Positions 18,959 to 54,429 of a stretch of DNA of 64,000 bases are shown here, one piece after another. A program made the translations under genes and the position numbers. The first letter of the stretch is position 1. Each line of letters opens with the position of its first letter. Location of the stretch: assembly GCA_042408445.1 (NCBI GenBank), contig JBHORC010000024.1, positions 44,092-108,091 on the forward strand, given 5' to 3'. Origin of the DNA: Chloroflexota bacterium. Lineage in GTDB: Bacteria; Chloroflexota; Limnocylindria; Limnocylindrales; CSP1-4. The notes under the pieces were generated by a model. The model was not told the DNA's origin. It did not search any database and saw only the letters and a program-made list of their open reading frames with translations.

Positions 18959-18977
18959 CCGCGTTGCGAAACGCGGT
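18958..18977 (+). terminator. Stem-loop immediately after the aminotransferase stop (ACCGCGTT-GCGA-AACGCGGT)
   Basis: Perfect 8-bp stem with GCGA tetraloop starting at the stop codon. No U-tract (I-shaped, as often in high-GC genomes). Confidence 0.35.
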
Positions 18978-19090
18978 TGCAGCGGCGCCCCGAACGGCGC
19001 AGCATTCCGTCATTCTCGGACGCGCCGCCGCTGGTCGAGGCACCCCGTCGGCCTGACCGCCGATTCTGGTTCTGGAAGGAGGCTCGAGAC

Positions 19091-19624
<534 letters not shown>

Positions 19625-19647
19625 GCCGAGAGCCAGAGGAGCTAGCG

Positions 19648-22059
19648 ATGGCAACCGACGTCCAGGACGTCCTCGGCGCACCGGTCAAGCGGGTCGAGGA
19701 TCCAAGGTTCATCACCGGCCAGGGCCGCTATCTCGACGACATCAAGCTCACCGGGATGACCCATCTGGCCATCCTCCGCAGCCCGTACGCCCACGCCAAC
19801 ATCCGCTCGGTCGACACGTCGGCGGCGAAGACGATGCCGGGCGTGCTAGCGGTGATCGTCGGCGCGGACATCCCGTACAACCCGCTGCCGATGGCCTGGC
19901 CGGCCGGCGGCGCGTCGGGGATCACGAACAACGTCAGCACGCCACGGGTGCTCGCGACGGACGGCGTCAAGTGGACCGGCGAGGGCGTCGCCGCAGTCGT
20001 GGCGGAGACGGAGGCCCAGGCGATCGACGCGCTGGAGCGGATCCAGGTCGACTGGGAGCCGCTGCCCGCGGTGGTCGACGCCGAGAAGGCGACCCAGCCG
20101 GGCGCACCTCAGCTCCACGACAACGCCCCGAACAACGAGGTGTTCACCTGGACCGTCGGTGACAAGGACGGGACCGACAAGGCGTTCGAGGGCGCCGAGG
20201 TCGTCGTCCGCCAGCGGCTCGTCAACCACCGCCTGATCCCGAACCCGATGGAGGTCCGGGGCGACATCGGCTGGTACAACCCGGGCACCGACGAGTACAC
20301 GATCTGGATGTCGAGCCAGACGCCGCACATCCAGCGGCTCCTCGTCGGGATCTTCACGATGGGGATCCCGGAGCACAAGCTCCGCTGCATCAGCCCCGAC
20401 GTCGGCGGCGCGTTCGGCTCGAAGATCTTCTGCTACGCCGACATGGCCCTCGTCCTGTTCGCGAGCAAGGCGATCGGCGGCCGGCCGGTGAAGTGGGTCG
20501 AGAGCCGGACGGAGAACTACCAGTCGACGATCCACGGCCGCGACCACATCACGTACGTCGAGGTGGCCGGCAAGCGGGACGGCGAGGTCACCGGGCTGCG
20601 CGTCAAGACGTACGCCAACCTCGGCGGCCGGCTGTCGACGATCGGCCCAGGCATCCCGACGACCCTCTACGGACGCGTCCTGTCCGGCTGCTACAAGATC
20701 CCGAACGTCTTCGCCGAGGTGACGGGCGTGTACACGAACACCACGTTCGTGGACGCGTATCGCGGCGCCGGCCGGCCGGAGGCGACCTACGTGGTCGAGC
20801 GGGCGATGGACCTGTTCGCCAACGAGATCGGGATGGACAAGGCGGCGATCCGCCGCAAGAACTTCATTCCGCCGGACGCGTTCCCGTACGACAACCCGTC
20901 CGGGCTCGGGACGGCCGTCAACGGCGAGAAGATCTACATCGACTCCGGCAACTACGAGCCGGCCCTGAACAAGGCGCTCATCGCCGCCGGGTACGAGAAC
21001 CTCGACGCCGCCCGGGCCGAGGCGAAGGGCCGCGGCAAGCTCCTCGGCATGGGCCTCAGCACCTACATCGAGGTGTGTGGCGTCGCGCCGTCGAAGTGGA
21101 TCGGCGCGGTCGGCGAGGGCTGGGGCGCCGCGATGTGGGAGTCGGCGAACGTCAAGGTCCACCTGACGGGCAAGATCATCGTCACGGTCGGCACCCAGCC
21201 CCAGGGCCAGGGCCACGAGACGACCTACAGCCAGATCATCAGCCACGAGCTCGGCGTTCCGATGGAGGACATCGTCATCCAGCACTCGGACACGCAGGGA
21301 ACCCCGTTCGGCTACGGCTCGTACGGCAGCCGGACGTCCTCGGTCGGCTCCACCGCTGCGATCAAGGCCGCCGACAAGGTCCGCGAGAAGGCGCGTCGCT
21401 ACGCGGCCCACATGCTCGAGGCCTCCCCGGACGACATCGAGGTCATCGGCGCGGAGTACCGGGTGAAGGGTTCGCCGGAGAAGAAGAAGACGCTCCAGGA
21501 GATCGCCTTCGCGCTGGACCTGGGGTTCAGCCTGCCAGCCGGCATGGAGCCGTATCTCGACGAGACGGCCTACTACGACACGCCGAACTGCACGTGGCCG
21601 TTCGGGACCCACATTGCGATCGTCGAGATCGACGAGGAGACCGGCGAGACCGAGCTGAAGCGGTACATCGCGGTCGACGACGTCGGCAAGAAGATCAACC
21701 CGCTCATCGTCGACGGCCAGCTCCACGGCGGGATCGCCCAGGGCGTCGGCCAGGCGCTGTGGGAGCAGGCGGTCTACAGCGACGACGGCCAGCTCCTGTC
21801 CGGCTCGATGATGGACTACGCCCTGCCGCGCGCGTCGTGGCTGCCGAACTTCGAGCTCGACGAGACGGTGACGCCGTCGCCCGTCAACCCGATCGGCGTG
21901 AAGGGCGTGGGCGAGGCCGGCTGCATCGCCTCGACCGCAGCCGTCGCGAACGCCGTCAACGACGCGCTCGCTCCGCTCGGGATCCGCCATCTCGACATGC
22001 CCTTCACCTCCCAGACGGTGTGGCGGGCGATCCAGTCCGCGAAGGGAGCCCAGGCATGA
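19648..22059 (+). CDS. coxL: Carbon monoxide dehydrogenase large subunit, molybdopterin; form II (AYRGAGR active-site loop)
   Basis: Xanthine dehydrogenase-family Mo subunit. Active-site loop VDAYRGAGRPEAT characteristic of form II/putative CODH. S-L-M gene order. Confidence 0.9.
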   Translation: MATDVQDVLGAPVKRVEDPRFITGQGRYLDDIKLTGMTHLAILRSPYAHANIRSVDTSAAKTMPGVLAVIVGADIPYNPLPMAWPAGGASGITNNVSTPRVLATDGVKWTGEGVAAVVAETEAQAIDALERIQVDWEPLPAVVDAEKATQPGAPQLHDNAPNNEVFTWTVGDKDGTDKAFEGAEVVVRQRLVNHRLIPNPMEVRGDIGWYNPGTDEYTIWMSSQTPHIQRLLVGIFTMGIPEHKLRCISPDVGGAFGSKIFCYADMALVLFASKAIGGRPVKWVESRTENYQSTIHGRDHITYVEVAGKRDGEVTGLRVKTYANLGGRLSTIGPGIPTTLYGRVLSGCYKIPNVFAEVTGVYTNTTFVDAYRGAGRPEATYVVERAMDLFANEIGMDKAAIRRKNFIPPDAFPYDNPSGLGTAVNGEKIYIDSGNYEPALNKALIAAGYENLDAARAEAKGRGKLLGMGLSTYIEVCGVAPSKWIGAVGEGWGAAMWESANVKVHLTGKIIVTVGTQPQGQGHETTYSQIISHELGVPMEDIVIQHSDTQGTPFGYGSYGSRTSSVGSTAAIKAADKVREKARRYAAHMLEASPDDIEVIGAEYRVKGSPEKKKTLQEIAFALDLGFSLPAGMEPYLDETAYYDTPNCTWPFGTHIAIVEIDEETGETELKRYIAVDDVGKKINPLIVDGQLHGGIAQGVGQALWEQAVYSDDGQLLSGSMMDYALPRASWLPNFELDETVTPSPVNPIGVKGVGEAGCIASTAAVANAVNDALAPLGIRHLDMPFTSQTVWRAIQSAKGAQA

Positions 22060-22959: not shown

Positions 22960-24018
22960 GTGCGCCTCGAGCGGCTGACGCCTGGCGTTCGACCGTCCGC
23001 AGAGCTGGTCGGCTCGGTCGTCGTCCGTGACCTCTTCGTCGGCGGCACGCGCTGGACGAAGGGGCGGCGACTCTCCGAGGCGGACCTGGACGCGTTCGAA
23101 CGCGACCCGCCGGCGGGTGTCGCCGACGTCACGGTGATCGTCCTCGGCCCGGCCGACCTCCACGAGGACGAGGCCGCGGAGCGACTCGCTGCGGCCGTCG
23201 CGGGGCCTGGCCTGGAGGCGCGTGGGCCCGTCCAGAGCCGCGTTGACCTGCTTGCGCGTGCCGCGGGCGTGCTCCACGTCCGCACGGCCGACCTCGAGCG
23301 CGTGAACCGGATCGACCCGCTCGAGGTGTTCACGCGGCTCGACGGCTCGATCGTCGCCGCGGGCGACCTGGTTGCGAGCGTCAAGGTTGCGCCGCACGTC
23401 GTCGAGGCGGAGGTCATCGCCCGGGGCGAGGCGATCGCCCGCGACGGGGCGCGACCGCTCGTGCACGTCGCGACCTTCCGGCCGATGCGCGTCGCGGTCG
23501 TCGTCAAGGAGACGCTCCGGGCGGCCGACCGCGCCCGGTTCGAGGCGACGGTTCGGGCGAAGGTGGAGAGCCTCGGCTCGACGATCCTCTCGATCGGTTA
23601 TGTCCCGGACGACGACGACGCGGTGCGTGCCGCGATCGCCGCGGTCACCACGGACGCGGCCGCGGGCTCCCGGGCGGACGTCGTCCTGACCGCCGGCGGC
23701 CGCTCGACCGATCCATCGGACCCGTTCTTCACGGCGATCGATGCGCTCCGCGGCACGGTCATCCGGCACGGCGTGCCGGCCCATCCCGGCTCGATGCTGT
23801 GGCTCGCGCGGATCGGCCGAACCGCGGTGATGGGCCTGCCGACCTGTGGCGCGTATTCGAAGGCGACGGCTGCGGACCTGCTCCTGCCGCGGCTGCTCAC
23901 CGGCGAGCCGCCGACGCTCCGGACCGTGTCCCATCTCGGTCATGGCGGCGTCCTGACCCGCGAGATGCGGTTCCGCTTCCCGGCCTACGCGCGGGAGCTC
24001 GACGCGCCCGACGGCTGA
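22960..24018 (+). CDS. Molybdopterin-binding (MoCF_biosynth/CinA-MoeA-like) domain protein
   Basis: C-terminal VVLTAGGRSTDPSDP...LPTCGAYSK MoCF-binding fold. Start uncertain. Confidence 0.55.
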   Translation: MRLERLTPGVRPSAELVGSVVVRDLFVGGTRWTKGRRLSEADLDAFERDPPAGVADVTVIVLGPADLHEDEAAERLAAAVAGPGLEARGPVQSRVDLLARAAGVLHVRTADLERVNRIDPLEVFTRLDGSIVAAGDLVASVKVAPHVVEAEVIARGEAIARDGARPLVHVATFRPMRVAVVVKETLRAADRARFEATVRAKVESLGSTILSIGYVPDDDDAVRAAIAAVTTDAAAGSRADVVLTAGGRSTDPSDPFFTAIDALRGTVIRHGVPAHPGSMLWLARIGRTAVMGLPTCGAYSKATAADLLLPRLLTGEPPTLRTVSHLGHGGVLTREMRFRFPAYARELDAPDG

Positions 24019-26571: not shown

Positions 26572-27453
26572 ATGACCCTGCCCGCCGGCGAAACCGCCTC
26601 GGCCGACGGCGCCCGCGAGGGATCGCCGGCCACCGCGCTCGAGAGCGTCGACGCGATCGTCGCCCGGTTCCGTGAGCGCGACTACGTCTCCGACCGATCC
26701 CTCGCGACCGCCGTCTTCCTCGCCCTCCGCCTGGGCCGGCCGCTCCTCCTCGAGGGCGAGGCCGGGGTCGGCAAGACGGAGCTGGCCAAGGTCCTCGCGG
26801 CCTCGCTCGGCGCCCGGCTGATCCGCCTCCAGTGCTACGAGGGGCTGGACGTCAATGCCGCGGTCTACGAGTGGAACTACCCGCGCCAGATGCTGGAGAT
26901 CCGGCTGCTCGAGGCGCGCGGCGAGGCGGATCGCGCGAACGCCCACGACATCTTCGGGCCGGATTTCCTGATCCGGCGACCGCTCCTGCAGGCGCTCGAG
27001 GCGGACGCATCCGGTGAGCCGCCGGTCCTGCTCATCGACGAGATCGACCGGGCTGACGAGGAGTTCGAGGCGTACCTCCTCGAGATCCTCTCGGACTTCC
27101 AGGTGACGGTCCCCGAGATCGGCACGATCAAGGCGGCCCGGCCCCCGCGGGTGATCCTGACGTCGAACCGGACGCGCGAGGTCCATGACGCCCTGAAGCG
27201 CCGCTGCCTCTACCACTGGATCGACTACCCGACGGCGCAGAAGGAATTCGAGATCGTCCTCGCCCGCGTCCCCGAGGCACCGGAGCGGCTGGCGCGCGAG
27301 GTCGTCGGCTTCGTCCATCGCCTCCGGGAGGCCGACCTGACGAAGGTGCCCGGGATCGCGGAGACCCTCGACTGGGCGGCGGCCCTGCTGTCGCTCGGCT
27401 CGCGTGAGCTGACCGGCGAGGTGGTCGACGAGACGCTCGGCGTCGTCCTCTAG
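26572..27453 (+). CDS. coxD: MoxR-family AAA+ ATPase, CoxD-like CODH maturation factor
   Basis: Walker A GEAGVGKTELAK, Walker B LLIDEIDRA, MoxR-type length. Ends at TAG followed by an in-frame 24-codon open stretch. Confidence 0.8.
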   Translation: MTLPAGETASADGAREGSPATALESVDAIVARFRERDYVSDRSLATAVFLALRLGRPLLLEGEAGVGKTELAKVLAASLGARLIRLQCYEGLDVNAAVYEWNYPRQMLEIRLLEARGEADRANAHDIFGPDFLIRRPLLQALEADASGEPPVLLIDEIDRADEEFEAYLLEILSDFQVTVPEIGTIKAARPPRVILTSNRTREVHDALKRRCLYHWIDYPTAQKEFEIVLARVPEAPERLAREVVGFVHRLREADLTKVPGIAETLDWAAALLSLGSRELTGEVVDETLGVVL

Positions 27454-27551: not shown

Positions 27552-28967
27552 GTGACCGCGCCGCGCGACCCGAACGACCCGGCGATCGTCCGCGCGCCCT
27601 GGGGACCGGAGGTGGACGGCCGCCGCCTGCTTGCCGAGTCGGTCGGCTTCGGACGGGCGCTTCGCGCCGCCGGGCTGGCGACGGATCTTGGCGCCGCCGC
27701 GGACTTCGCCCGGGCGCTGACCTGCATCGAGATGGGCGAGCGCGACACGGTCCGAGCCGCCGGGGAAGCGGTCTTCGTCCGCCGTCGCGACGATCGCGAG
27801 GTCTACGACCGCGTCTTTGCCCGCTGGTGGCGGAAGCGCGGCCGGAAGCGACCGATGACGGACGGCCCGGCCGTGCCGACGACGGACGAGAGCGCCCCGG
27901 ACGCCGAGGACGGCGTCGGCACGCCGGCCGGCGAGGAAGGCACGATCGGCGACGACCCGAACCGGATCGACGGCATCCCGATGCCGATCGCGGGCGACGA
28001 GGACGACGACTCCGAGGTCGACGGGATCATCGCCGCGCCGACCGCCTATTCCTCCAGCGAGCTGCTCCGTCACCGCGACTTCGACCGGATGACCGCGGCC
28101 GAGCTGCGGGACGCCGAGCGGCTCGTCGACCTGCTGGAGCCGCGCCTCGAGATGCGCCGGACGCGGCGATACGAGCTGCATCATCACGGCCGCCTCCTCG
28201 CGCCGCGGACGATGCTTCGACGGAACATCGCCACGGGCGGCCAGTTCACCGAATGGATCTGGCGCCGACCCACGAAGCGGCCCCGTCAGATCGTCGTCCT
28301 GTGCGACATCTCCGGCTCGATGGAGCGCCACTCGCGGCTGCTGCTCCGGTTCGTCCAGGCGCTCTCCGCGGCGTCATCGGTCAAGACGGAGTCGTTCGTG
28401 TTCGGGACGCGCCTGACCCGGGTGACGCGCCTGCTCCGCGATCGCGATCGGGATCGTGCCCTCGCCCGGATCGCCGACAGCGTCAACGACTGGGCCGGCG
28501 GGACGCGGATCGGCGAGTCGTTCCGCGACTTCAACCGGACGTGGGCGCGGCGGACGCTACGCACGAGCGGCATCGTGATCATCGTGTCCGACGGATGGGA
28601 CCGCGGCGACCCGGCGCTCGTGGCGACCGAAACGGCACGCCTTCGCCGGAACTGCCATCGCCTCGTCTGGCTCAACCCGCTGGCGGGCACGCCGGGCTAC
28701 GAGCCGCTCGCCGGCGGGATGCGCGCCGCGCTGCCGTACATCGACGACTTCGTCCCGGCGGGGACCGTGGCCAGCCTCGAGCGGCTCGGCGAGATCCTGG
28801 CGGGGATCCGGTCCAGCGACGTCCGGCGCGGCGGTGAGGCCGCGGCGTCCGCCGACGCCGGCGAGCGCCCGTCCAGCCAGGCGATCCGATCGGCCGCGCC
28901 GCCCCCGCCGCTCGATCTCGGGGCGGTGGATCCGGCTGCCGCGCGGCCCTTGACGCAGCGGACGTAA
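27552..28967 (+). CDS. coxE: VWA-domain protein, CoxE-like CODH maturation factor
   Basis: VWA/MIDAS motif VLCDISGSM. Adjacent to coxD. Confidence 0.7.
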   Translation: MTAPRDPNDPAIVRAPWGPEVDGRRLLAESVGFGRALRAAGLATDLGAAADFARALTCIEMGERDTVRAAGEAVFVRRRDDREVYDRVFARWWRKRGRKRPMTDGPAVPTTDESAPDAEDGVGTPAGEEGTIGDDPNRIDGIPMPIAGDEDDDSEVDGIIAAPTAYSSSELLRHRDFDRMTAAELRDAERLVDLLEPRLEMRRTRRYELHHHGRLLAPRTMLRRNIATGGQFTEWIWRRPTKRPRQIVVLCDISGSMERHSRLLLRFVQALSAASSVKTESFVFGTRLTRVTRLLRDRDRDRALARIADSVNDWAGGTRIGESFRDFNRTWARRTLRTSGIVIIVSDGWDRGDPALVATETARLRRNCHRLVWLNPLAGTPGYEPLAGGMRAALPYIDDFVPAGTVASLERLGEILAGIRSSDVRRGGEAAASADAGERPSSQAIRSAAPPPPLDLGAVDPAAARPLTQRT

Positions 28968-28986: not shown

Positions 28987-30111
28987 ATGAAGGAGCTCCT
29001 GGACCAGCTGGCCGACTGGAACGGACACGGGATCGGTGCCGGGCGGGCCGTGGTCGTCCGGACGTTCGGCAGCGCCCCGCGGCCGGAAGGCGCGGTCCTG
29101 ATCCGGGCAGACGATGGACGGATCGCCGGATCGGTGAGCGGTGGCTGCGTCGAGGGCGCCGCCGCGACGGAGATCGAGCGGGCGCGGGCGGACGGCAACA
29201 GCCGGGTGATCCGCTACGGGATCAGCGACGAGGAGGCGTGGGACGTCGGCCTCGCCTGCGGCGGGACGATCGACGTCCTGATCGAGCCCGTGGTCCCCGT
29301 CGAGGCCGCCGAGGGCGCCGCGCTCCGTGGCCGCGCCGTCGCCACGATCCTGCCGCCGGACGCCCCGCCATCGGGCTTCGGACGTCACGAGCCGGGTGAC
29401 GGCGCACCACCCCAGCCGCGGATCGTCGTCACGCCGGACGGGACGCTCTCCCGTTCCCTCGGCTCGGCCGAGGCGGACGAGGCGTTGCGCCGTGCCGCGA
29501 GCGACGCGCTGCTCCGCGGGACGTCCCGGACCGTGGCCATCGGCGACCGACAGGTGTTCATCGAGGCGTTTCCCGTCCGGCCGCGGCTCGTGATCGTGGG
29601 TGCCGTGGAGGTGGCTCGCTCACTCGCGGTCTTCGCCAGGGAGCTGGGGTACGAGGTCGCCGTGATCGACGGGCGCGCGTCATTCGCGACCCCCGAGCGC
29701 TTTCCGCCGGACCGGGTCGACCGGCTCGTCGTGGGCTGGCCGGACGAGGTGGCGGACGAGATCGGACTCGGTCCGGACGACGCGGTCGCCGTCCTGACCC
29801 ACGACGTCAAGTTCGACGAGCCGGCGATCGTCGAGGCGCTCCGCCGCGGCTGCCGCTACGTCGGCGCGGTCGGATCGCGCAAGACGCAGGGCGATCGACG
29901 CGAGCGGCTCCGCGAGGCGGGCGTCAGCGAGGAGGAGCTCGGCCGGCTCCGCGGCCCGGTCGGTCTCGACCTGGGCGGGCGGAACCCGTCGGAGACGGCG
30001 CTGGCGATCATCGGCGAGGTCGTTGCGGACCGATACGGCGGCTCGGGGCTGCCGCTCCACGCGATCGCCCGCGGGCAGCTCGGGGAGGCACTCGCGCCGG
30101 CTGCGTCCTGA
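28987..30111 (+). CDS. XdhC/CoxI-family molybdoenzyme maturation factor (CoxF-like)
   Basis: XdhC_CoxI N-terminal domain (VVRTFGSAPRPEGA...VSGGCVE) plus Rossmann-like XdhC_C (IVGAVEVARSLAVFA). Confidence 0.7.
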   Translation: MKELLDQLADWNGHGIGAGRAVVVRTFGSAPRPEGAVLIRADDGRIAGSVSGGCVEGAAATEIERARADGNSRVIRYGISDEEAWDVGLACGGTIDVLIEPVVPVEAAEGAALRGRAVATILPPDAPPSGFGRHEPGDGAPPQPRIVVTPDGTLSRSLGSAEADEALRRAASDALLRGTSRTVAIGDRQVFIEAFPVRPRLVIVGAVEVARSLAVFARELGYEVAVIDGRASFATPERFPPDRVDRLVVGWPDEVADEIGLGPDDAVAVLTHDVKFDEPAIVEALRRGCRYVGAVGSRKTQGDRRERLREAGVSEEELGRLRGPVGLDLGGRNPSETALAIIGEVVADRYGGSGLPLHAIARGQLGEALAPAAS

Positions 30112-42980: not shown

Positions 42981-43625
42981 ATGACGGCTGACGACGCAGC
43001 ACGCGCCACCCGCACCGCCGGCGTCGTCCTCGCCGCGGGCGCGGGCTCCCGGTTCGGTGGCGGGAAGCTGCTGGCGGAGCTCGACGGCGAGCCGATCCTC
43101 CGGCACGTCGTCTCCGCAGCGGTCGCCGCCGGCCTCGACCCGATCGTCGTCGTCGAGCCGCCCGACGGCAGCGTGGGCGATCTGGATCTCGGGCCCGTTC
43201 GACGGATCGTCAATCCCCACCCCGAGGAGGGCCTCTCGAGCTCCGTTCGGCTCGGCCTCCGTGGGCTCCTCGACGACGAGGACGTGGAACAGGCCGTGAT
43301 CCTGCCTGGCGACCAGCCGCGGGTTCGGCCCTCGACGATCCGCGCGCTGGTCGACGCATCGGACGAATCGCCGCGGACGCCGTTCGTCGTCGCCCGCCAC
43401 GACGCGGACCGGACGCCCAACCCGGTGCTCGCGCGCCGTTCGATCTGGCGACTCGCCGACGAGATCGCGGGCGATCGCGGCTTCGGGCCCGTGCTCGGTG
43501 CGCACCCGGAGCTCGTCCGCGAGGTCCGGATCGAGGGCGCGAACCCGGACGTCGACACGGCCGAGGACCTGCGCCGGCTGTCGGGGCCGATCGAACCCGC
43601 CGCCGGCGGGCGCGACGTATCGTGA
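42981..43625 (+). CDS. MobA-like nucleotidyltransferase (candidate molybdenum cofactor cytidylyltransferase MocA, or a sugar-phosphate nucleotidyltransferase)
   Basis: GVVLAAGAGSRFGGGK P-loop-like motif of the MobA/MocA/IspD NTP_transf_3 family. Confidence 0.55.
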   Translation: MTADDAARATRTAGVVLAAGAGSRFGGGKLLAELDGEPILRHVVSAAVAAGLDPIVVVEPPDGSVGDLDLGPVRRIVNPHPEEGLSSSVRLGLRGLLDDEDVEQAVILPGDQPRVRPSTIRALVDASDESPRTPFVVARHDADRTPNPVLARRSIWRLADEIAGDRGFGPVLGAHPELVREVRIEGANPDVDTAEDLRRLSGPIEPAAGGRDVS

Positions 43626-44493: not shown

Positions 44494-44994
44494 GTGTCCA
44501 TCGCCGATGCCGTCGCCGGCGCGACCGTCTACCTGACCGACCATCCCGATGAGGCCCGCTACCGCGACTCGGTCGCGACGGCGCGGATCACCTCGGGGCT
44601 TCGCGCCGAGGTCCGGGGTCCGGGCGGCGAAACCGTCGCGGCCGACATGCCGACCGGCATCGGTGGCACCGCCTCCGCCCCGTCGCCAGGCTGGCTGATG
44701 CGAGCCGCGGCCGCCTCGTGCGTCGCTGCGCTCATCGCCATTCGGGCTGCGGCCACGGGCGTGGCGCATGGTGCGATCGAGGTCGCGGTGGACAGCGAGT
44801 CCGACGACCGCGGCATTCTCGGCCTGGACGAGGCGATCGACGCCGGCGCGCTGTCGATGGCGGTCGTCGTCTCCGTCGACGGGGTCGCGGATCACGAGGC
44901 TCGATCCCTCGTCGACTGGGCGGTCGCGCATTGCCCGGTCACGGACACGATCGCGAGGGCGGTCCCGATCGCCGCCGAGGTTCGCGCAGCGTAG
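44494..44994 (+). CDS. OsmC/Ohr-family protein
   Basis: approx. 165 aa with OsmC-like pattern including conserved Cys pair (ASCVAAL...AHCPV). SD GAGGAGGAG before GTG. Confidence 0.7.
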   Translation: MSIADAVAGATVYLTDHPDEARYRDSVATARITSGLRAEVRGPGGETVAADMPTGIGGTASAPSPGWLMRAAAASCVAALIAIRAAATGVAHGAIEVAVDSESDDRGILGLDEAIDAGALSMAVVVSVDGVADHEARSLVDWAVAHCPVTDTIARAVPIAAEVRAA

Positions 44995-45074: not shown

Positions 45075-45863
45075 GTGGACGAGATGGCGGCGGTCTTCCG
45101 GGCGCTGGGCGATCCCAGCCGGCGGCTGCTCCTCGATCGGCTGTTCGATCGCGACGGACAGACGCTCGGCGAGCTGGCGGCGCATCTGCCCGGCATGACG
45201 CGCTTCGGCGTGATGCGCCATCTCGATGTCCTCGAGGAAGCCGGCCTGATCGAGACGCGTCGGGTCGGCCGCGAGAAGCACCACTTCCTGAACCCCGTCC
45301 CGATCCGGCTCGTCGCCGATCGCTGGATCGGCAAGTTCGCCGAGCCGGTGGTCGGGCGGATGGCCGCGATCAAGCACGACCTGGAGGCACCCTCGATGCT
45401 CGCACCGGACCATGTCTACTCGGTGATCATCCGCGCGACGCCCGACCGGATCTGGCGGGCGATCACGGACGGGGTCGAAACCGAGCGCTACTACTACGGC
45501 ACGCGGGTCGACTCGGACTGGTCGCCGGGCGGCCGCGTCATCTACACGTATCCGGATGGTTCGGTCGCGGCCGACGGCGAGGTCGTCGACATCGAGCCAG
45601 GCCGCTCCGTGACGATGACCTTCCACGCCCGGTGGAGCCCGGAGATCGAAGCCGAGGGTCCCGTCCGGATGACGTGGGCGGTCGAGCCTGCTGGCCCGGG
45701 TGTCTCGAAGCTCACGGTCGTGACGTCCGGGATGCGCGAAGGCGGCGTCGTCCAGACGGAGTTCGGCGGCGGAATCGTCTTCATCGTCTCGGGGCTGAAG
45801 ACGTACGTCGAGACGGGGGAGGCGATGGCGGCCGAGCCGGACGCGGTGGCCACGGGAAGCTGA
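45075..45863 (+). CDS. ArsR-family HTH fused to SRPBCC/AHSA1 (activator of Hsp90 ATPase-like) domain regulator
   Basis: N-terminal FRALGDPSRRLLLDRL...LAAHLPGMTRFGVMRHLDVLEEAGLI. C-terminal AHSA1-like approx. 150 aa. Confidence 0.75.
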   Translation: MDEMAAVFRALGDPSRRLLLDRLFDRDGQTLGELAAHLPGMTRFGVMRHLDVLEEAGLIETRRVGREKHHFLNPVPIRLVADRWIGKFAEPVVGRMAAIKHDLEAPSMLAPDHVYSVIIRATPDRIWRAITDGVETERYYYGTRVDSDWSPGGRVIYTYPDGSVAADGEVVDIEPGRSVTMTFHARWSPEIEAEGPVRMTWAVEPAGPGVSKLTVVTSGMREGGVVQTEFGGGIVFIVSGLKTYVETGEAMAAEPDAVATGS

Positions 45864-46399: not shown

Positions 46400-46738
46400 C
46401 TACATGATCCCGATGACGTGGCCCTCGGGATCGGCGAACAGCGCGATCGTCGTCTGCGGCGCGACCTCGGTGAGCGGCATCAGGACGCGGCCGCCCTTCG
46501 AAGCGACCTTGTCGAGGACGCCCTGCGGGTCGTCGCTGTGCACGTAGAACGTGACGCCCGCCGGCTGGCCTTCCGGCGCGCCGCCGATCCCGCCGGTGAT
46601 TCCGTCGCCCTGGCGGTACATGCCGTACCCGCCCGGGTTGTTCGTGTCGATGCTCCAGCCGAAGACATCCCGGAAGAACTCCTGGAGCTTCGCCCCGTCC
46701 TTGCCGGTGACCTCGACGTGTACGACCTGAGCTCCCAT
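46400..46738 (-). CDS. VOC-family (glyoxalase/bleomycin-resistance fold) protein
   Basis: 112 aa, beta-alpha-beta-beta-beta pattern with HVEVTGKD / FYVHSDDPQG. Confidence 0.7.
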   Translation of the reverse strand: MGAQVVHVEVTGKDGAKLQEFFRDVFGWSIDTNNPGGYGMYRQGDGITGGIGGAPEGQPAGVTFYVHSDDPQGVLDKVASKGGRVLMPLTEVAPQTTIALFADPEGHVIGIM

Positions 46739-47063: not shown

Positions 47064-47933
47064 ATGATTCCCGCAGCCTTCGACTACGTCCGGCCACCGG
47101 ATCTCGACGCCGCCCTGCGGGTCCTCGCAGAGCGCGAGGGTGAGGCGAAGCTCCTCTCGGGCGGGTACAGCCTGCTGCCCCTGCTCAAGCTCCGGCTCGC
47201 CCAGCCGGCCGTCCTCGTCGACCTCCGCGACGTCGCCGGTCTCGACGGCATCACCCGGCGCGACTTCTTCTCGATCGGCGGCCGGGCAACGCATCGGCGG
47301 ATCCACGAGGACGAGGCGCTCGGCGCGGCGTGGCCCGTCATCCACGAGGCGGCCGGCGGGATCGGCGACCCGCAGGTCCGCAACTGGGGGACGATCGGCG
47401 GCTCGTGCGCCCACGCCGACCCGAGCTCGGACTGGCCGGCCGTGCTGCTCGCTCTGCGCGCGGACCTGGTCTGTCGCAGCGGGTCCGGCGAGCGCGTCGT
47501 CAAGGCCCGCGACTTCTTCCTCGACACCTTCACGACCGCGATCGAGCCGACCGAGGTCCTGACGGAGGTCCGGATCCCGCTCCCGAACCCGCGGACGGGC
47601 AGCGCCTACCGCAAGCTCGAGCGCCGAGCGGGCGACTTCGCGACGGTCGGGGTCGCTGCGACGCTGACCCTCGCCGACGACGGCACGATCGCCGCGGCAG
47701 GAATCGGGCTGACGGCCGTGGCCGAGACGCCGTTCGCGGCGACCGACGCCGAGGCGGCCCTCGTCGGCCACGCGCTGACCGATGACACGTTCCGCGCGGC
47801 GGGTGCCGCCGCAGCCGCCCAGAGCCGGCCCGGCAGCGACAGCCACGGACCCGCCGAGTACAAGCGGGCGATGGTCGCCGAGATGACGGTGCGGGCGCTG
47901 CGGGCCGCAGCCAACCGGACGACCGGCGAGTAA
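47064..47933 (+). CDS. coxM: Carbon monoxide dehydrogenase medium subunit, FAD-binding; form I cluster
   Basis: MIPAAFDYVRPPDLDAAL..., LSGGYSLLPLLKLRL. First gene of M-S-L order typical of form I. Confidence 0.85.
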   Translation: MIPAAFDYVRPPDLDAALRVLAEREGEAKLLSGGYSLLPLLKLRLAQPAVLVDLRDVAGLDGITRRDFFSIGGRATHRRIHEDEALGAAWPVIHEAAGGIGDPQVRNWGTIGGSCAHADPSSDWPAVLLALRADLVCRSGSGERVVKARDFFLDTFTTAIEPTEVLTEVRIPLPNPRTGSAYRKLERRAGDFATVGVAATLTLADDGTIAAAGIGLTAVAETPFAATDAEAALVGHALTDDTFRAAGAAAAAQSRPGSDSHGPAEYKRAMVAEMTVRALRAAANRTTGE

Positions 47934-47948
47934 CGGAGGCGATCGAGC

Positions 47949-48497
47949 ATGACCACCCAGCACGTCTCCGTCACGGTCAACGGCGAGGCCCATGAGGCCG
48001 ATGTCGAACCGCGCCTCCTCCTCGTCCATCTCCTTCGCGACGTCTTCGGCCTCACCGGAACGCACGTCGGGTGCGACACGAGCAACTGCGGCGCCTGCAC
48101 GGTCCACGTCAACGGCCAGAGCGCGAAGTCCTGCACGATGCTCGCGGTCCAGGCCGACGGCGCCGAGATCCGGACGATCGAGGGCATGGTCGACGGCGCC
48201 ACCCTCCACCCGCTCCAGCAGGCCTTCTGGGACCAGCACGGTCTCCAGTGCGGGTTCTGCACGCCGGGGATGATCATGCAGGCCGCCTGGCTGCTGGACC
48301 AGAACCCGAAGCCGTCCGAGCACGAGATCCGGGAGGGGATCAGCGGCAACCTCTGTCGCTGCACCGGCTACGTGAACATCGTGAAGGCGATCCAGCAGGC
48401 GTCGGGCCAGCTCGACACGGGCCAGGCGGCGCCGGTCGTGGCTGCCGAGACCACCGACGGACAGGCCGTCTCGGCCGAACCGGCCGCGGCCGGTTGA
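47949..48497 (+). CDS. coxS: Carbon monoxide dehydrogenase small subunit, [2Fe-2S]; form I
   Basis: [14 protein letters not shown] and CGFCTPGM...CRCTGY iron-sulfur motifs. Confidence 0.9.
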
Positions 48498-48513: not shown

Positions 48514-50910
48514 ATGACGACGGAAGCAACACCCCGCACCAGCCCCGAGATCGGGGGCATGGGCCACTCGGTCAAGCGCAAGGAGGATCCGCGCTTCATC
48601 CGCGGCCGTGGCGAGTACATCGAGGACGTGAACCTGCCGGGCCAGCTGTGGCTCGACATCGTCCGCAGTCCCTATGCCCACGCGACGATCAAGGGCATCG
48701 ACGCGAGCGAGGCGCTCAAGGTCCCGGGGGTCCTCGCCGTCATCACCGGCAAGGATCTCGAGGGCTACAAGCTCCACTGGATGCCGACCCTCGCCGGCGA
48801 CATGCAGATGGTCCTGCCGACCGACACGGTCATGTACCAGAGCCAGGAAGTCGCGGCGGTGATCGCGACGAGTCGCTATGCCGCAGCCGACGGCGTCGCC
48901 GCGGTCCTCGTCGACTACGACCCGCTCCCCGTCGTGGTGGATCCGTTCAAGGCGCTCCAGGCGGATGCGCCGGTGCTCCGCCCGGACCGTGCTGCCGACA
49001 AGCAGACGAACCGCATCTGGCACTGGGAATCGGGCGACGAGTCCGCGGCGGACACCGCCCTCGCCAACGCCGAGGTCCGGATCGCCGAGGACATCTACAT
49101 CCCGAGGATCCACGTCGCCTCGATCGAGACGTGCGGTTGCGTCGCGGACTGGGATCCGGTTCGCCAGCAGCTCACCCTGCACATGACGACCCAGGCGCCG
49201 CACGCGATCCGGACCGTCATCGCCCTCGTCGCCGCGGGCGCCGGGCTGCCGATCTCCGAGCAGAACATCCGGGTGAAGACGCACGACATCGGCGGCGGCT
49301 TCGGCGGCAAGGTCCCGGTCTACCCGGGCTACGTCCTCGCGGTCGCGGCCTCGTTCCTCATCGGCAAGCCGGTGAAATGGATCGAGGACCGCTCGGAGAA
49401 CCTCCAGGCGGACTCCTTCGCCCGGGACTACCACATCCACGCCGAGATGGGCGCCACGAAGGACGGCCGGATCCAGGCGCTCAAGGTCCGGACGATCGCC
49501 GACCACGGCTACACGGACGCCGCGGCCGACCCCTCGAAGTTCCCGGCGGGTCTGTTCAACGTGATCACCGGGTCGTACGACTTCCCGAACGCGTTCGTCG
49601 AGGTCGACGGCGTCTACACGAACAAGCCGCCTGGCGGCGTCGCCTACCGCTGCTCGTTCCGCGTGACCGAGGCGGTCCACGCGATCGAGCGGATGGTCGA
49701 CGTCCTGGCGCATGACATCGGCAAGGACCCGGCCCAGGTCCGGATGGAGAACTTCATCCAGCCCGAGCAGTTCCCGTACACCACGCCGACCGGCTGGTCG
49801 TACGACTCGGGCAACTATCCGGCCGCCCTGCAGAAGGCGATGGACCTCATCGACTACGCCGGGCTGCGCCGCGAACAGGCCGAGAAGCGCGCCCGTGGCG
49901 AGCTCATGGGGATCGGGATCAGCAGCTTCACCGAGATCGTCGGCGCGGGGCCGTCCCACGACTTCGACATCCTCGGGATCAAGATGTTCGACTCGTGCGA
50001 GATCCGGGTCCACCCGACGGGCAAGGTGCTCGCGCGGCTCGGCGTGCAGACGCAGGGCCAGGGCCACGAGACGACGTTCGCCCAGATCATCGCCGAGGAG
50101 CTCGGCTTCCCGGTGCAGGACATCAAGATCGAGGAAGGCGACACGGACACCGCGCCCTACGGGCTCGGCACGTACGCGTCGCGCTCGACGCCGGTCGCGG
50201 GCGCCGCGACCGCGATCGCGGCCCGGAAGATCCGGGAGAAGGCCCGCAAGATCGCCGCCCACCTCCTCGAGGCGAGCGAGGACGACCTCGAGTGGGAGCC
50301 CGGCAAGTTCAGCGTCAAGGGCTCGCCGGACCGGTTCAAGACGATCCAGGAGATCGCCTTCGCGGCCTACACGAACCATCCGGCCGGGATGGAGGCGGGC
50401 CTGGAGGCCGTCGACTACTACGACCCGCCGAACCTGACGTTCCCGTTCGGCAGCTACATCTGTGTCGTCGACATCGACAAGGGCACCGGCGAGGTGAAGA
50501 TCCGCCGGTTCGTCGCGGTGGACGACTGCGGCAACATCATCAACCCGATGATCGTCGACGGCCAGATCCACGGCGGCCTCACGATGGGCCTCGCCCCGGC
50601 GCTGTACGAGGCGATCACGTACGACGAGAACGGCAACAACCTCGCCGGCACGTTCATGGATTACCTGCTCCCGACCGCGCTCGAGACGCCCGCCTGGGAG
50701 CTCGAGAAGACCGTCACGCCTTCGCCGCATCACCCGATCGGGGCCAAGGGCGTCGGCGAGTCGGCGACCGTCGGCGCGCCGCCCGCGATCGCCAATGCCG
50801 TCGTCGATGCCCTGTGGCACCTCGGCGTCCGGAACATCGACATCCCGATCACCCCGCCGAAGGTGTGGGCGATCCTCAACGAGAAGGGCGTCGTCGGCGC
50901 TCCGGCCTGA
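48514..50910 (+). CDS. coxL: Carbon monoxide dehydrogenase large subunit, Mo-Cu; form I (AYRCSFR active-site loop)
   Basis: VAYRCSFR signature with Cu-ligand Cys. approx. 798 aa xanthine dehydrogenase-family Mo subunit. Confidence 0.95.
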   Translation: MTTEATPRTSPEIGGMGHSVKRKEDPRFIRGRGEYIEDVNLPGQLWLDIVRSPYAHATIKGIDASEALKVPGVLAVITGKDLEGYKLHWMPTLAGDMQMVLPTDTVMYQSQEVAAVIATSRYAAADGVAAVLVDYDPLPVVVDPFKALQADAPVLRPDRAADKQTNRIWHWESGDESAADTALANAEVRIAEDIYIPRIHVASIETCGCVADWDPVRQQLTLHMTTQAPHAIRTVIALVAAGAGLPISEQNIRVKTHDIGGGFGGKVPVYPGYVLAVAASFLIGKPVKWIEDRSENLQADSFARDYHIHAEMGATKDGRIQALKVRTIADHGYTDAAADPSKFPAGLFNVITGSYDFPNAFVEVDGVYTNKPPGGVAYRCSFRVTEAVHAIERMVDVLAHDIGKDPAQVRMENFIQPEQFPYTTPTGWSYDSGNYPAALQKAMDLIDYAGLRREQAEKRARGELMGIGISSFTEIVGAGPSHDFDILGIKMFDSCEIRVHPTGKVLARLGVQTQGQGHETTFAQIIAEELGFPVQDIKIEEGDTDTAPYGLGTYASRSTPVAGAATAIAARKIREKARKIAAHLLEASEDDLEWEPGKFSVKGSPDRFKTIQEIAFAAYTNHPAGMEAGLEAVDYYDPPNLTFPFGSYICVVDIDKGTGEVKIRRFVAVDDCGNIINPMIVDGQIHGGLTMGLAPALYEAITYDENGNNLAGTFMDYLLPTALETPAWELEKTVTPSPHHPIGAKGVGESATVGAPPAIANAVVDALWHLGVRNIDIPITPPKVWAILNEKGVVGAPA

Positions 50911-50932: not shown

Positions 50933-52027
50933 GTGAGCCACAGCATCTTTCGTCGAGCGGCCGAGCTCGAGCAGGCCGGTCGCCCGTTCGTCGTCGCGAC
51001 CGTCGTTGCCGTCGCGCGGCCCACCTCCGCTCGCCCCGGAGCGAGCGGCATCGTCCACCCGGATGGAACGATCGAGGGCTGGGTCGGCGGCAGCTGCGCC
51101 CAGCCCGTGGTCGTGCGGGAGGCGCTCCACGCGATGGCCGACGGCCAGCCGCGTCTCCTCCGCCTGTCGAAGGACGCGCCGGCCGAGGGCCGCCGTGCCG
51201 ACGGCATCGTCGAGCTCGTGATGACGTGCCATTCCGGCGGCACGCTGGAGATCTACGTGGAACCCCATCTTCCCGCGCCGCTCCTCTGGATCGCCGGCAC
51301 GACCCCGATTGCCGGCGCGCTCGTCACCCTCGGCGCCGCGAGCGGCTGGCGCGTCTCGGTCTTCGATCCGGTTGCCCAGAGCGAGGACTTCCCGGCTGCC
51401 GAACGCGTCAGTCAGGAGACGTCGTTGGGCCGCGTCGATCCGGAGGCCAGTCCGTACGTCGTCGTCGCGACGCAGGGCGTCTGGGACGAGGAAGCGCTCG
51501 CCGCCGGGCTGCGCCGATCCGCGTCCTATGTCGGCCTCGTCGCCTCGCCGACCCGGGCGAACGTCGTCCGGCAGTGGCTGCGCGAGGAGACCGGGCTCGC
51601 CGAGGAGCGGCTCGCCGCGCTGCGCGCGCCCGCTGGGATGGATCTCGGCGCGGAGACGGCGGAGGAGATCGCCCTGTCGATCCTGGCCGAGCTCGTCCAG
51701 GTCCGGCGCGGGCGCGCTCCCTTCGTCGCGTCCCCGGGGCCGGCGACGATGACCGGTGACGCGGCGCTCGTCGTCCCGCCGATCCAGCCCGTCGTCGATG
51801 ACATCGTGCTGGTCGATCCGGTCTGCGGGATGACCGTGGACCGCGCTCACGCCCGCCACCTCGCCGAGCACGAGGGAACGGTCTACGCGTTCTGCTCGAT
51901 CGGCTGTCGGACGCGCTTCATCCGCGAGCCCGCCGCGTTCCTCGCCGCGCCGGGGACCGCCGGGATGTCACCTGCCGGTCGACCCGCGACCGTTGGCGGC
52001 GACTCCCCGTTATCATCCGACGCCTGA
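50933..52027 (+). CDS. XdhC/CoxI-family maturation factor fused to C-terminal YHS/TRASH metal-binding domain
   Basis: XdhC_CoxI N-terminal domain (FVVATVVAVARPTSARPGA...VGGSCAQ) plus Rossmann XdhC_C. C-terminal DPVCGMTVDRAHARHLAEHEGTVYAFCSIGCRTRF. GTG start. Confidence 0.7.
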   Translation: MSHSIFRRAAELEQAGRPFVVATVVAVARPTSARPGASGIVHPDGTIEGWVGGSCAQPVVVREALHAMADGQPRLLRLSKDAPAEGRRADGIVELVMTCHSGGTLEIYVEPHLPAPLLWIAGTTPIAGALVTLGAASGWRVSVFDPVAQSEDFPAAERVSQETSLGRVDPEASPYVVVATQGVWDEEALAAGLRRSASYVGLVASPTRANVVRQWLREETGLAEERLAALRAPAGMDLGAETAEEIALSILAELVQVRRGRAPFVASPGPATMTGDAALVVPPIQPVVDDIVLVDPVCGMTVDRAHARHLAEHEGTVYAFCSIGCRTRFIREPAAFLAAPGTAGMSPAGRPATVGGDSPLSSDA

Positions 52028-52106: not shown

Positions 52107-52547
52107 ATGAAGTTCGCCGGTACCGTCGACATCGCCGCGCCACGCGACCGCGTCTGGGCGTTCGTCATCGACCCGAACCAGGTCGGCAAGTGCGGGCCCG
52201 GCGTCGAATCGATCGAGGTCGTCGACGCGACGCACTTCAAGGCAACGGCGAAGGTCGGGATCGGGTTCATCAGCGCCCGGTTCGTCGTGAACATGGAGAT
52301 GGCGGATCAGCAGCCGCCCGATCGGGCGGTCATCAAGGCGCACGGCCAGGCGCCCGGGAGCGCAGTGGACGCGACCGCGTCGATGACCCTGAGCGACGGC
52401 CCGAGCGGCGGCACCCGCATGGACTGGGACGCTGACGTGATGATCTCCGGCAGCCTGGCATCGCTCGGCTCGCGGCTGATCGAAGGCACCGCCAACAAGA
52501 TGATCGGCCAGACGTTCGACTGCATGAAGGCGACCCTCGAGGCCTGA
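52107..52547 (+). CDS. coxG: CoxG-family SRPBCC protein (CODH-associated)
   Basis: approx. 146 aa, MKFAGTVDIAAPRDRVWAFVIDPNQVGKC... CoxG-like pattern. Downstream of the form I cluster. Confidence 0.75.
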   Translation: MKFAGTVDIAAPRDRVWAFVIDPNQVGKCGPGVESIEVVDATHFKATAKVGIGFISARFVVNMEMADQQPPDRAVIKAHGQAPGSAVDATASMTLSDGPSGGTRMDWDADVMISGSLASLGSRLIEGTANKMIGQTFDCMKATLEA

Positions 52548-52572: not shown

Positions 52573-54429
52573 ATGAACATGCTCCCGCTTCACGCGCCGC
52601 TCCGAAGCGCGCTCGGCGATCTTGCCGACGCCGTTCCGCACCTCGTCTGGGTCGCGGCTGACGACGGGACCGTCCGCGATTACAACGGCCGGATCGCCGA
52701 CTATGCGGATGCCCGGCTGGCGGGACAGGACGGCTGGCGCTGGGAGGCGCTCGTCCACCCCGACGACCTCGGGCCGACGACGGAGGCCTGGCACGAAGCG
52801 GTCGCCCGCGGCGGTCCGTACGAGCACGAGCACCGGCTCCGGATGGCCGACGGGACGTTCCGCTGGCACCTGAGCCGCGGCGTCGCGGTCCGCGACGAGG
52901 CGACCGGCGAGGTGACCTGGTATGGCACGGCCACGGACATCGACGGCGGTCGCGTCGCCGAGGATCTGCTACGCCGGACCCAGAGCTCGCTCGCGCTGGC
53001 GATGCGCGGTGGCCGCATGGGCTGGTGGACGCGCGACCTCGAGACCGAGGTCGTGACGTGGAGCCCCGAGCTCGAGGAGCTGTTCGGGTTGCCGCCGGGT
53101 GGGTTCGAGGGGCGCGAGACCGCGTTCCTCGAGCGGGTCGTGCCGGAGGATCGGGCCGCGGTCTCCGCCGCCGTCGCGAACGCGCTCGCGAACCGGACGG
53201 ATTACATCGTCGAGTTCCGGTTCCAGCACGCGGACGGCTCGATCCGCTGGATGGACGGCCGCGGGCGTGCCACGTACGAGGGCGACCGTCCGACGGTCCT
53301 CTACGGCATCGGGATCGACATCACGATCCGCAAGGAGGCGGAGGAGGAGCTTCGGGGCCGGGAGGAGCGGCTGCGCCTGGCCGCCGAGGCGGGCGAGTTC
53401 GGCCTGTATGACTACGACCTGGTGACCGGCGAGCGCTACTGGTCGCCGGAGCTCCACGAGATCGTGGCGACGAGCGGCGCGACGCCGTCCCCGGACGCCC
53501 CACCCATCCATCCCGACGATCGCGAGGCGGCCCTGGAGCGATTCGCCGCTGCCCAGCTGCCGACGGGTGACGGATCGATCGACCACGAGTTCCGGGTCGT
53601 CCGTCCGGACGGGACGATCCGCTGGGTCTCGACCCACGGCCAGACTTACTTCTCCGAGGCGGAACCGTCTCCGTCACGACGGGCGCTCCGCTCGATCGGC
53701 GTCGTCGTCGACGTGACCGAGCGCAAGCAGGCGGACGAGCTGCGCGACGTGTTCGTCGGGATGCTGAGCCACGAGCTTCGCACACCCGTCACGGCGATCT
53801 TCGGCGGGAGCCAGCTCCTCCGGCGACCGAACCTCGACGAGGCGGACCGGAGGGGGATCATCGACGACATCGTCTCGGAGAGCGAGCGACTGGAGCGCCT
53901 CGTCGAGAACCTCCTCGTCCTCGCCCGGGCGGAGCGGCACGTGGTCGAGAGTGGCAGCGATCCGGTCCTCGTCCGGCCGCTGATGGAGCGGATCCTCGCC
54001 GACAAGCGACGGCGCTGGCCGGACGCGACGATCGTCCTCGAGGCCGCCGCCGGGCTGCCGCCGGCGCGCTGCGACGAGGCATCGTTCGAGCTCGTGCTCC
54101 GGAACCTCGTCTCGAACGCCCTGAAGTACGGTGACGAAGGGGAGATCCTCGTCCGGGCGGCCCTCGTCGACGGCGACATCGAGATCAGCGTGTGCGACGA
54201 GGGGCCGGGTCTCCCGGACGACCCCTCACGGCTGTTCGATCTGTTCTATCGGACGGACACGGCGCGACGACGGGCGCAGGGTGCCGGGATCGGCCTGTAC
54301 GTGGTCCGGGCCCTGGTCGAATCCGCCGGCGGGACGACGTGGGCCCGGAATCGGCCGGAAGGCGGCGCGGAGTTCGGGTTCCGGCTGCCGGCGTACGGCG
54401 AGGCCGACGACCTGTTCGACGGCGACTGA
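52573..54429 (+). CDS. Cytoplasmic sensor histidine kinase with three PAS domains
   Basis: Three PAS-like modules. HisKA H-box MLSHELRTPVTAI. HATPase_c N/G boxes (NLVSNALKYG, GAGIGLYVV). No TM segments. Confidence 0.85.
   Translation: MNMLPLHAPLRSALGDLADAVPHLVWVAADDGTVRDYNGRIADYADARLAGQDGWRWEALVHPDDLGPTTEAWHEAVARGGPYEHEHRLRMADGTFRWHLSRGVAVRDEATGEVTWYGTATDIDGGRVAEDLLRRTQSSLALAMRGGRMGWWTRDLETEVVTWSPELEELFGLPPGGFEGRETAFLERVVPEDRAAVSAAVANALANRTDYIVEFRFQHADGSIRWMDGRGRATYEGDRPTVLYGIGIDITIRKEAEEELRGREERLRLAAEAGEFGLYDYDLVTGERYWSPELHEIVATSGATPSPDAPPIHPDDREAALERFAAAQLPTGDGSIDHEFRVVRPDGTIRWVSTHGQTYFSEAEPSPSRRALRSIGVVVDVTERKQADELRDVFVGMLSHELRTPVTAIFGGSQLLRRPNLDEADRRGIIDDIVSESERLERLVENLLVLARAERHVVESGSDPVLVRPLMERILADKRRRWPDATIVLEAAAGLPPARCDEASFELVLRNLVSNALKYGDEGEILVRAALVDGDIEISVCDEGPGLPDDPSRLFDLFYRTDTARRRAQGAGIGLYVVRALVESAGGTTWARNRPEGGAEFGFRLPAYGEADDLFDGD

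Follow-up and report, generated by a model that had tools for sequence, protein, structure and literature searches.

The window examined here, a 64,000-nucleotide stretch of Chloroflexota DNA, holds a gene cluster for an aerobic, form I Mo-Cu carbon monoxide dehydrogenase (CODH) in which the gene for the large subunit, coxL, is directly followed by a gene that we call coxF-YHS. This gene encodes a maturation factor of the XdhC family that ends in a small YHS/TRASH-type domain. Sequence comparison identifies the protein as an orthologue of the CODH maturation factor CoxF, not of its paralogue CoxI, and within the sample examined the fusion pairs exclusively with coxL of the AYRCSFR type. One aspartate and three cysteines in the YHS domain, together with Met300, make up a predicted soft-metal site. 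The reading that we regard as probable is that the tethered YHS domain captures Cu(I) and feeds the CoxF-mediated insertion of copper into CoxL.

Copper has to reach the buried Mo-S-Cu centre of aerobic CODH, an enzyme that removes atmospheric CO and helps many microbes of soils and seas to survive. What is currently proposed for its route derives from the mutants of a single alphaproteobacterium and from short sequence motifs in the CoxF of that organism. Insertional coxE and coxF mutants of Afipia (Oligotropha) carboxidovorans produced fully folded, partly sulfurated CODH that contained Mo-SH and Mo-SSH and no copper (PMC4240915), and the sulfuration of CODH in this organism depends on CoxD (PMC4240915). 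Soluble CoxF was proposed as the supplier of Cu(I) by Pelzmann, Mickoleit and Meyer (2014), with M107CPSHGTM as the suspected copper site and a C-terminal phytase-like motif proposed in addition, and the same authors called for work at the protein level (PMC4240915). The supply of copper by CoxF is an idea already in print, to which the present work contributes comparative evidence and a candidate metal site with defined residues; the YHS tail gives independent comparative support to CoxF as a handler of copper. No paper linking XdhC or CoxF with YHS, TRASH or HMA domains was found in the searchable literature, which omits most subscription journals.

Orthology of the coxF-YHS protein to CoxF

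The A. carboxidovorans cox cluster of plasmid pHCG3, in which CoxF is WP_013913733, was used as the reference. The coxF-YHS protein is 39% identical to A. carboxidovorans CoxF over 256 amino acids (E 1e-42) and 26% identical to CoxI (E 4e-14), with bit scores of 139-152 to CoxF and 59-61 to CoxI. An all-against-all bit-score matrix, which included the paralogue pairs of Paraburkholderia and Natronorubrum, separated into two clean groups, CoxF versus CoxI; the coxF-YHS protein falls with every CoxF, and the product of a second XdhC-family gene in the window (28987-30111) falls with the CoxI types. The opposite assignment, with the latter product as the true CoxF and the YHS protein as CoxI, was considered and is contradicted by this matrix.

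At the position of the suspected copper motif MCPSHGTM of the A. carboxidovorans protein, the coxF-YHS protein reads MTCHSGGTL, so that the cysteine is kept, the histidine is shifted and the second methionine is absent. This cysteine, Cys99, is invariant in the alignment columns of the family, as is Cys55 (nucleotide 51095) in the GGSC sequence of the XdhC_CoxI domain. An equivalent of Cys99 is also present in CoxI-type proteins, where it stands in C-G-G, and for this reason Cys99 alone says little about copper. The phytase-like motif RHGXRXP was sought in the coxF-YHS protein and is absent from it; the corresponding stretch reads VRRGRAPF and is followed by the linker and the YHS domain.

Domain structure and the predicted metal site

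The open reading frame extends from GTG 50933 to TGA 52027 on the forward strand and its translation has 364 codons with no internal stops. The GTG start agrees with the N-termini of aligned homologues; a longer frame from ATG 50795 would run into coxL. Overall G+C content in the window is about 72%, and the third-position G+C backs the coxF-YHS frame. Neither a chance match nor an error of gene calling or assembly accounts for the fusion, as the architecture is conserved across 80 species loci and also in genomes that are complete.

An earlier, sequence-only reading of the window had described an XdhC_CoxI N-terminal domain, an XdhC_C Rossmann domain and a C-terminal YHS domain, the last to be checked against hidden Markov models (HMMs). 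All three were recovered by Pfam: both XdhC domains lie above their gathering scores (Table 1), and the YHS match (PF04945; 35.1 bits, E 1.4e-8, gathering score 30.3) covers profile positions 2-44 of 47. The C-terminal peptide named in that reading, DPVCGMTVDRAHARHLAEHEGTVYAFCSIGCRTRF, is found in the coxF-YHS translation.

The ligand pattern of YHS domains, D/C-x2-C...C-x3-C (PMC4626032), is matched by D295, C298, C321 and C325. The three cysteines and M300 do not vary among 48 diverse fusions, in which D295 reaches at least 90% conservation; in another set, of 49 fusions, none of the five residues varies. In terms of overall conservation in the 48 fusions, the mean majority-residue fraction per column is 0.61 for the YHS domain, 0.63 for the N-terminal XdhC domain and 0.19 for the linker. 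The YHS domain is as strongly conserved as the N-terminal XdhC domain, and the linker is not.

An AlphaFold2 model of the protein was built from a 49-sequence alignment and has a mean predicted local distance difference test score (pLDDT) of 85. The XdhC body (residues 1-262) is mostly above 90, and the YHS mini-domain (residues 291-341), which is modelled as short strands and helices, lies between 82 and 92. The model thus predicts a tethered-domain geometry, in which a folded body is joined by a 26-residue disordered linker to a small folded YHS domain. The body resembles the solved XdhC-like structure 2WE7 (phmmer, E 2.3e-21), and a Foldseek search with the model body returned 2WE8 (E 2.9e-18) and 3ON5 (E 2.3e-16); 2WE7 and 2WE8 show the counterpart of Rv0376c in M. 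smegmatis. In a sequence search of the PDB, the YHS peptide found nothing better than weak matches to the C-terminal region of the phenol hydroxylase PHN (E 0.07).

The nearest relatives of the isolated YHS domain were searched by tblastn with a 47-residue query among 72,556 plasmid records. The best matches in these records are annotated as P-type ATPases that translocate copper or heavy metals, with 55-61% identity over 44-47 amino acids (E about 1e-10). ATPases of this kind have been described as having tandem TRASH/YHS domains within the N-terminal metal-binding region (PMC5552934). A specific response to Cu2+ has been described for the C-terminal YHS domain of the class III adenylyl cyclase of Mycobacterium phlei (Linder 2015, PMC4626032), for which the ligands, one aspartate and three cysteines, were assigned by analogy with TRASH domains (PMC4626032).

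Pairing of the fusion with form I CODH

The sequence-only reading had placed the fusion next to a Mo-Cu form I CODH, and the neighbouring gene bears this out. On TIGR02416, the NCBIfam equivalog model for the large subunit of aerobic CO dehydrogenases, the upstream coxL scores 1211.7 bits (cutoff 991), and residues 377-383 of its product read AYRCSFR; the start of coxF-YHS lies 23 nucleotides past the coxL stop.

This arrangement was examined in 80 fetched Limnocylindria loci. In every locus with enough upstream DNA, the fusion is preceded at a distance of about 1.3 kb by AYRCSFR, encoded on the strand of the fusion itself, and 3 of the 80 also contain an AYRGAGR gene farther away. Beyond this class, the fusion occupies the CoxF position of coxMSL clusters in Thermomicrobium roseum, Paraburkholderia aromaticivorans, Deinococcus sp. 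AJ005 and Natronorubrum bangense, where all four coxL genes encode AYRCSFR; coxG, coxD and coxE are also present in these clusters, except in that of T. roseum. Plasmids of Caballeronia have both an XdhC match that covers the YHS domain and a form I coxL match. Six of seven diverse metagenomic fusions lie in clusters of coxMSL with coxD, coxE and coxG, and the coxL genes of these clusters all encode AYRCSFR.

The fusion might equally have occurred beside Cu-free molybdoenzymes, an outcome that the sequence-only reading had named as telling against copper delivery. Wherever a coxL adjoins a fusion it is of the AYRCSFR type, and no fusion was seen beside a Cu-free molybdoenzyme in this sample, which was chosen by likeness to a CoxF-type query. 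PF04945 was also absent from all 120 best matches to a profile of CoxI-type paralogues (0/120); most of these proteins come from lineages whose CoxF type always has the YHS domain.

Distribution of the fusion and absence of the tail

When the 120 closest clusters at 90% identity were examined, 119 had all three Pfam domains; these clusters come mostly from metagenome-assembled genomes of Chloroflexota and Candidatus Limnocylindrales. The YHS motif occurs in all of the 80 Limnocylindria species loci but one, which stops at its contig end. A scan of the genome collection with a narrower alignment yielded species of Limnocylindria/Chloroflexota only, and the wider breadth described here comes from plasmids and metagenome contigs. 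When 1.84 billion representatives at 50% identity were searched exhaustively, 516 proteins had E <1e-30. A local HMM of the YHS region detected the domain in 121 of the 150 best representatives (34-76% identity), a proportion inflated by the full-length query, which rewards bearers of the domain. The regular expression CGM...FCxxxC undercounts it (78-99 of 150), and many relatives read C-N-M, C-H-M or C-D-M at the first YHS cysteine.

About half of the 29 representatives without a YHS domain are fragments or frameshifted calls. Among the remainder, one protein of the CoxF clade (P0177) has an HMA domain in place of the YHS domain (PF00403, 40.9 bits), and about eight end in Cys-Cys tails (e.g. 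P0246, P0248, P0253-P0256 and P0268). Other relatives, brought to light by profile searches, bear the YHS domain in two or three tandem copies. In four representative proteins of 530-565 amino acids (P0138, P0149, P0170 and P0172), a triple fusion joins a MocA-like NTP_transf_3 domain to XdhC and YHS, an architecture that may tie the synthesis of the cytosine dinucleotide cofactor to CoxF. In a further protein, P0232, XdhC has a C-terminal MocA-like domain where others have the YHS domain.

In plasmid and chromid records, tblastn matches that run through the YHS domain were obtained from T. roseum, P. aromaticivorans, two Caballeronia strains and N. bangense, the last being a haloarchaeon. About 6 of 19 CoxF-type matches in the plasmid search carry the domain, and the split tracks taxonomy. 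The CoxF encoded on plasmid p380k of Deinococcus sp. AJ005 (L084:8001-9062) was matched through this region too and has a degenerate YHS sequence, PVDGEE...YYFTCANC, and this may be a decaying or repurposed domain.

The branching order of the CoxF bodies was examined in a neighbour-joining tree, without support values, that was rooted with CoxI. YHS-bearing forms occur throughout this tree and tail-less forms are nested among them, a hint of secondary loss of the YHS tail. In Nonomuraea gerenzanensis, the coxL homologue (L093:3287-5953) reads AYACSFR, not AYRCSFR, and the adjacent CoxF is tail-less.

Proteins with this architecture are labelled 'XdhC family protein' in databases for cultured organisms and, once, 'YHS domain-containing protein' for a metagenome-assembled genome. 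The architecture is already in public domain tables, and the gene in the window is an ordinary member of a large, automatically annotated family.

The cox locus and its surroundings

The features of the window are listed in Table 1. The accessory gene set is complete but split: coxF lies beside coxL, and coxD, coxE and a CoxI-type XdhC gene are found about 20 kb upstream. The XdhC gene that follows coxD-coxE in this window is not of the CoxF type. These distant genes, the orthology to CoxF and the wide spread of the fusion were all overlooked by the sequence-only reading.

A second molybdenum hydroxylase is encoded at 18977-22059, its [2Fe-2S] small subunit lying at 18977-19624 and its large subunit at about 19648-22059. 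Neither AYRCSFR nor AYRGAGR was found in this large subunit, and there is no adjacent subunit for flavin adenine dinucleotide (FAD). It is followed by a gene for a protein with a MoCF_biosynth domain (22960-24018).

The cox operon is flanked by genes for an OsmC-like protein (44494-44994) and a fusion of ArsR-HTH and AHSA1 (SRPBCC) domains (45075-45863), and by a glyoxalase-family gene on the minus strand (46400-46738). In three relatives (L002, L086 and L091), a GAF histidine kinase and a GerE-type response regulator adjoin the cox clusters. It is possible that genes flanking the cox operon, including the histidine kinases of relatives, are regulators that respond to CO or redox state. A DUF364 gene is located in, or right after, the cox accessory clusters of Natronorubrum (L085:11427-12347) and of a metagenomic relative (L086:9326-10099, with DUF4213), where it adjoins CoxF-YHS or CoxE and is a candidate accessory factor.

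Table 1. Features of the coxF-YHS gene, the cox locus and related genes in the window
Feature	Position	Strand	Description	Basis
coxF-YHS gene	50933..52027	+	364 amino acids; CoxF-type XdhC-family maturation factor with C-terminal YHS domain	translation, Pfam, CoxF orthology
XdhC_CoxI N-terminal domain	50972..51163	+	residues 14-77	Pfam, 69.8 bits (gathering score 24.3)
M97-T-C99-H-S-G-G-T-L segment	51221..51247	+	same position as A. carboxidovorans CoxF M107CPSHGTM	
XdhC_C Rossmann-like domain	51284..51694	+	residues 118-254	Pfam, 103.3 bits (gathering score 29.7)
Flexible linker	51725..51802	+	residues 265-290	AlphaFold2 pLDDT <50; column conservation 0.19
YHS/TRASH-type domain	51812..51943	+	residues 294-337; predicted ligands D295, C298, C321, C325, and invariant M300	
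C-terminal tail	51956..52024	+	residues 342-364; disordered, non-conserved	pLDDT <50
coxM	47064..47933	+	FAD subunit; likely start ATG 47064, GGAGGA in front	
coxS	47949..48497	+	[2Fe-2S] subunit	Pfam
coxL	48514..50910	+	form I Mo-Cu CODH large subunit; AYRCSFR at nucleotides 49642-49662	
coxG	52107..52547	+	SRPBCC/CoxG; likely start ATG 52107	
Triple-PAS histidine kinase	52573-54429		downstream of coxG	
MobA/MocA-like nucleotidyltransferase	42981..43625	+	candidate maker of the cytosine dinucleotide molybdenum cofactor	
coxD-like gene	26572..27453	+	MoxR AAA+ ATPase	domain search
coxE	27552..28967	+	VWA_CoxE	domain search
Second XdhC-family gene	28987..30111	+	CoxI-type, without YHS domain	domain search, bit-score matrix

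Discussion

A role of the YHS domain in copper delivery is favored by the genetics of CoxF, by the fact that within the sample the fusion pairs exclusively with an enzyme that depends on copper, by the relatedness of the domain to the metal-binding domains of Cu-ATPases, and by its tandem multiplication in some relatives. Since HMA domains or Cys-Cys tails replace the YHS domain in other relatives, metal binding appears to be the selected property. We infer that copper is the metal, and we likewise infer which way it is passed and to what. In the proposed sequence of events, the YHS domain would acquire Cu(I) from the pool in the cytoplasm, unless a copper chaperone supplies it. It would then swing on its linker and pass the copper straight into the active-site funnel of a folded, already sulfurated apo-CoxL, or to the CoxF body, whose cysteines, of which C55 and C99 are invariant in the family, would relay it. 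The Cu(I) would finally be held between the cysteine of AYRCSFR and the Mo-bound sulfide, and CoxD (AAA+) and CoxE (VWA) would assist in the process.

Several observations weigh against this reading. Copper binding by YHS domains had been treated as established knowledge in the sequence-only reading, which is an overstatement: the biochemical evidence concerns the Cu2+-sensing domain of the mycobacterial adenylyl cyclase, and copper binding by the YHS domain of Cu-ATPases has been proposed and not demonstrated, and the YHS domain in the crystal of toluene-4-monooxygenase is metal-free (PMC4626032). In the window, coxD and coxE lie 20 kb from coxF and beside another Mo-hydroxylase. One fusion (P0361; L088:8001-8975), on a 1.44 Mb metagenome contig, has neither a Mo enzyme nor any cox gene in the 8 kb before or after it, and the sampling of CoxF-like proteins leaves room for YHS fusions in distant XdhC clades. 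The YHS-shaped tail of Deinococcus lacks the first cysteine, has the second one shifted and scores 29.1 bits against the gathering score of 30.3, which fits a non-metal role at least there. Finally, nothing follows the Rossmann domain in CoxF from Nonomuraea or from Alphaproteobacteria such as Afipia, Bradyrhizobium, Rhizobium and Roseivivax. The YHS domain must be dispensable in some lineages, because the CoxF of the model organism and of others works without a tail.

Other roles of the YHS domain were weighed against copper delivery. The domain could be a copper sensor or switch that gates the chaperone activity or partner binding of CoxF, with the copper of CoxL arriving by another route. 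The only biochemically characterised YHS domain cited here indeed activates the catalytic domain to which it is fused in response to Cu2+ (PMC4626032), the TRASH domains of archaeal CopR-type regulators are sensors, and the predicted tethered geometry would suit a switch as well as a donor. A long and loose tether couples poorly to allostery, however, and the disordered linker has 26 residues compared to 8-11 in the cyclase; tandem YHS domains and exchanges for HMA or Cys-Cys tails also look less like one allosteric site than like the arms with which metallochaperones and ATPases bind metal. We consider a sensor unlikely. It is likewise improbable that the domain is an adaptor, holding structural zinc in a treble-clef-like fold or no metal at all, that docks CoxF on CoxL, CoxE or the membrane. 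TRASH, YHS and zf-FCS domains are treble-clef-type cysteine modules, and weak zf-FCS co-hits were obtained in the profile searches. The YHS domain of toluene-4-monooxygenase is metal-free in the crystal and L24e binds Cd/Zn structurally (PMC4626032), and both Deinococcus, which keeps the domain and loses ligand cysteines, and the tail-less CoxF proteins keep this explanation alive. The presence of the domain only on the paralogue of the copper step, and not on the CoxI type, speaks against an adaptor, as do the Cu-ATPase metal-binding domains as nearest relatives. The HMA domain that takes its place in P0177 is a soft-metal chaperone fold of quite different shape, an exchange that favors metal binding over a docking surface.

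A part in sulfur chemistry, as a persulfide relay for the Mo-bound sulfide, or in the handling of molybdenum or thiomolybdate, is in our estimate very improbable. XdhC-family proteins have been linked to the sulfuration of the molybdenum cofactor (Moco) (PMC2997495, PMC4240915), the sequence-only reading had spoken of 'Cu and/or S', and the MocA-XdhC-YHS triple fusions connect the protein with cofactor synthesis. Sulfuration in A. carboxidovorans nevertheless needs CoxD, and coxF mutants keep Mo-SH and Mo-SSH (PMC4240915). Such a relay would be needed by all sulfurated Mo hydroxylases, yet the YHS domain was seen only with form I CODH. The aspartate and three cysteines, the similarity to Cu-ATPases and the HMA exchange all indicate a metal cation.

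The copper-delivery reading can be extended to CoxF as a whole. It is quite possible, and is put forward tentatively, that CoxF usually carries a tethered soft-metal module, that this state is probably ancestral, and that the module forms the entry of Cu(I) to the CuSMoO2 cluster. The module would consist of one to three YHS domains, or of HMA or Cys-Cys tails in some lineages, and the tail-less CoxF of A. carboxidovorans would be a derived exception. If this is true, the copper site of CoxF has long been undefined because the CoxF of the model organism is tail-less, and copper insertion could be tested in vitro with the CoxF-YHS proteins of T. roseum (WP_143714800), P. aromaticivorans (WP_035477365) and N. 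bangense. Residues D295, C298, C321 and C325, together with culturable hosts of the fusion, give an experimental handle on copper insertion, and a possible aid to the heterologous production of active Mo-Cu CODH.

Comparison with known systems

The closest comparison is with A. carboxidovorans CoxF, which has the same XdhC_CoxI and XdhC_C body, belongs to the same clade and is encoded in a form I cox cluster. That protein has 280 amino acids, a proposed phytase motif reading RHGQRQS and no cysteine-containing tail, and its gene follows coxD-coxE. In contrast, the CoxF of the window has the added linker and YHS domain and is encoded directly after coxL. XdhC of Rhodobacter capsulatus, PaoD of E. 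coli and CoxI share the two-domain fold and the conserved cysteines, but differ from CoxF-YHS in serving Cu-free enzymes, for which they bind sulfurated Moco, protect it and insert it.

In terms of the YHS domain itself, the M. phlei adenylyl cyclase is similar in having a C-terminal YHS domain with the same D-x2-C...C-x3-C pattern on an enzyme, where CoxF-YHS has it on a chaperone body. The cyclase is a regulatory sensor with a short linker, whereas CoxF-YHS is a maturation factor of a copper enzyme with a long, disordered one. The P1B copper ATPases contain the closest plasmid-encoded relatives of the YHS domain in the window and have it in tandem copies, as do some CoxF relatives; they differ in that the domain is part of a membrane export pump and not of a cytoplasmic assembly factor.

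Tethered metallochaperones are familiar from other metalloenzymes, including CCS for Cu,Zn superoxide dismutase, and UreE and HypB with their metal-binding tails. Their folds and targets are unrelated to those of CoxF-YHS. What they would have in common with CoxF-YHS, which is known from its sequence, is the combination of a target-recognition body with a flexible soft-metal module that loads a buried site after folding.

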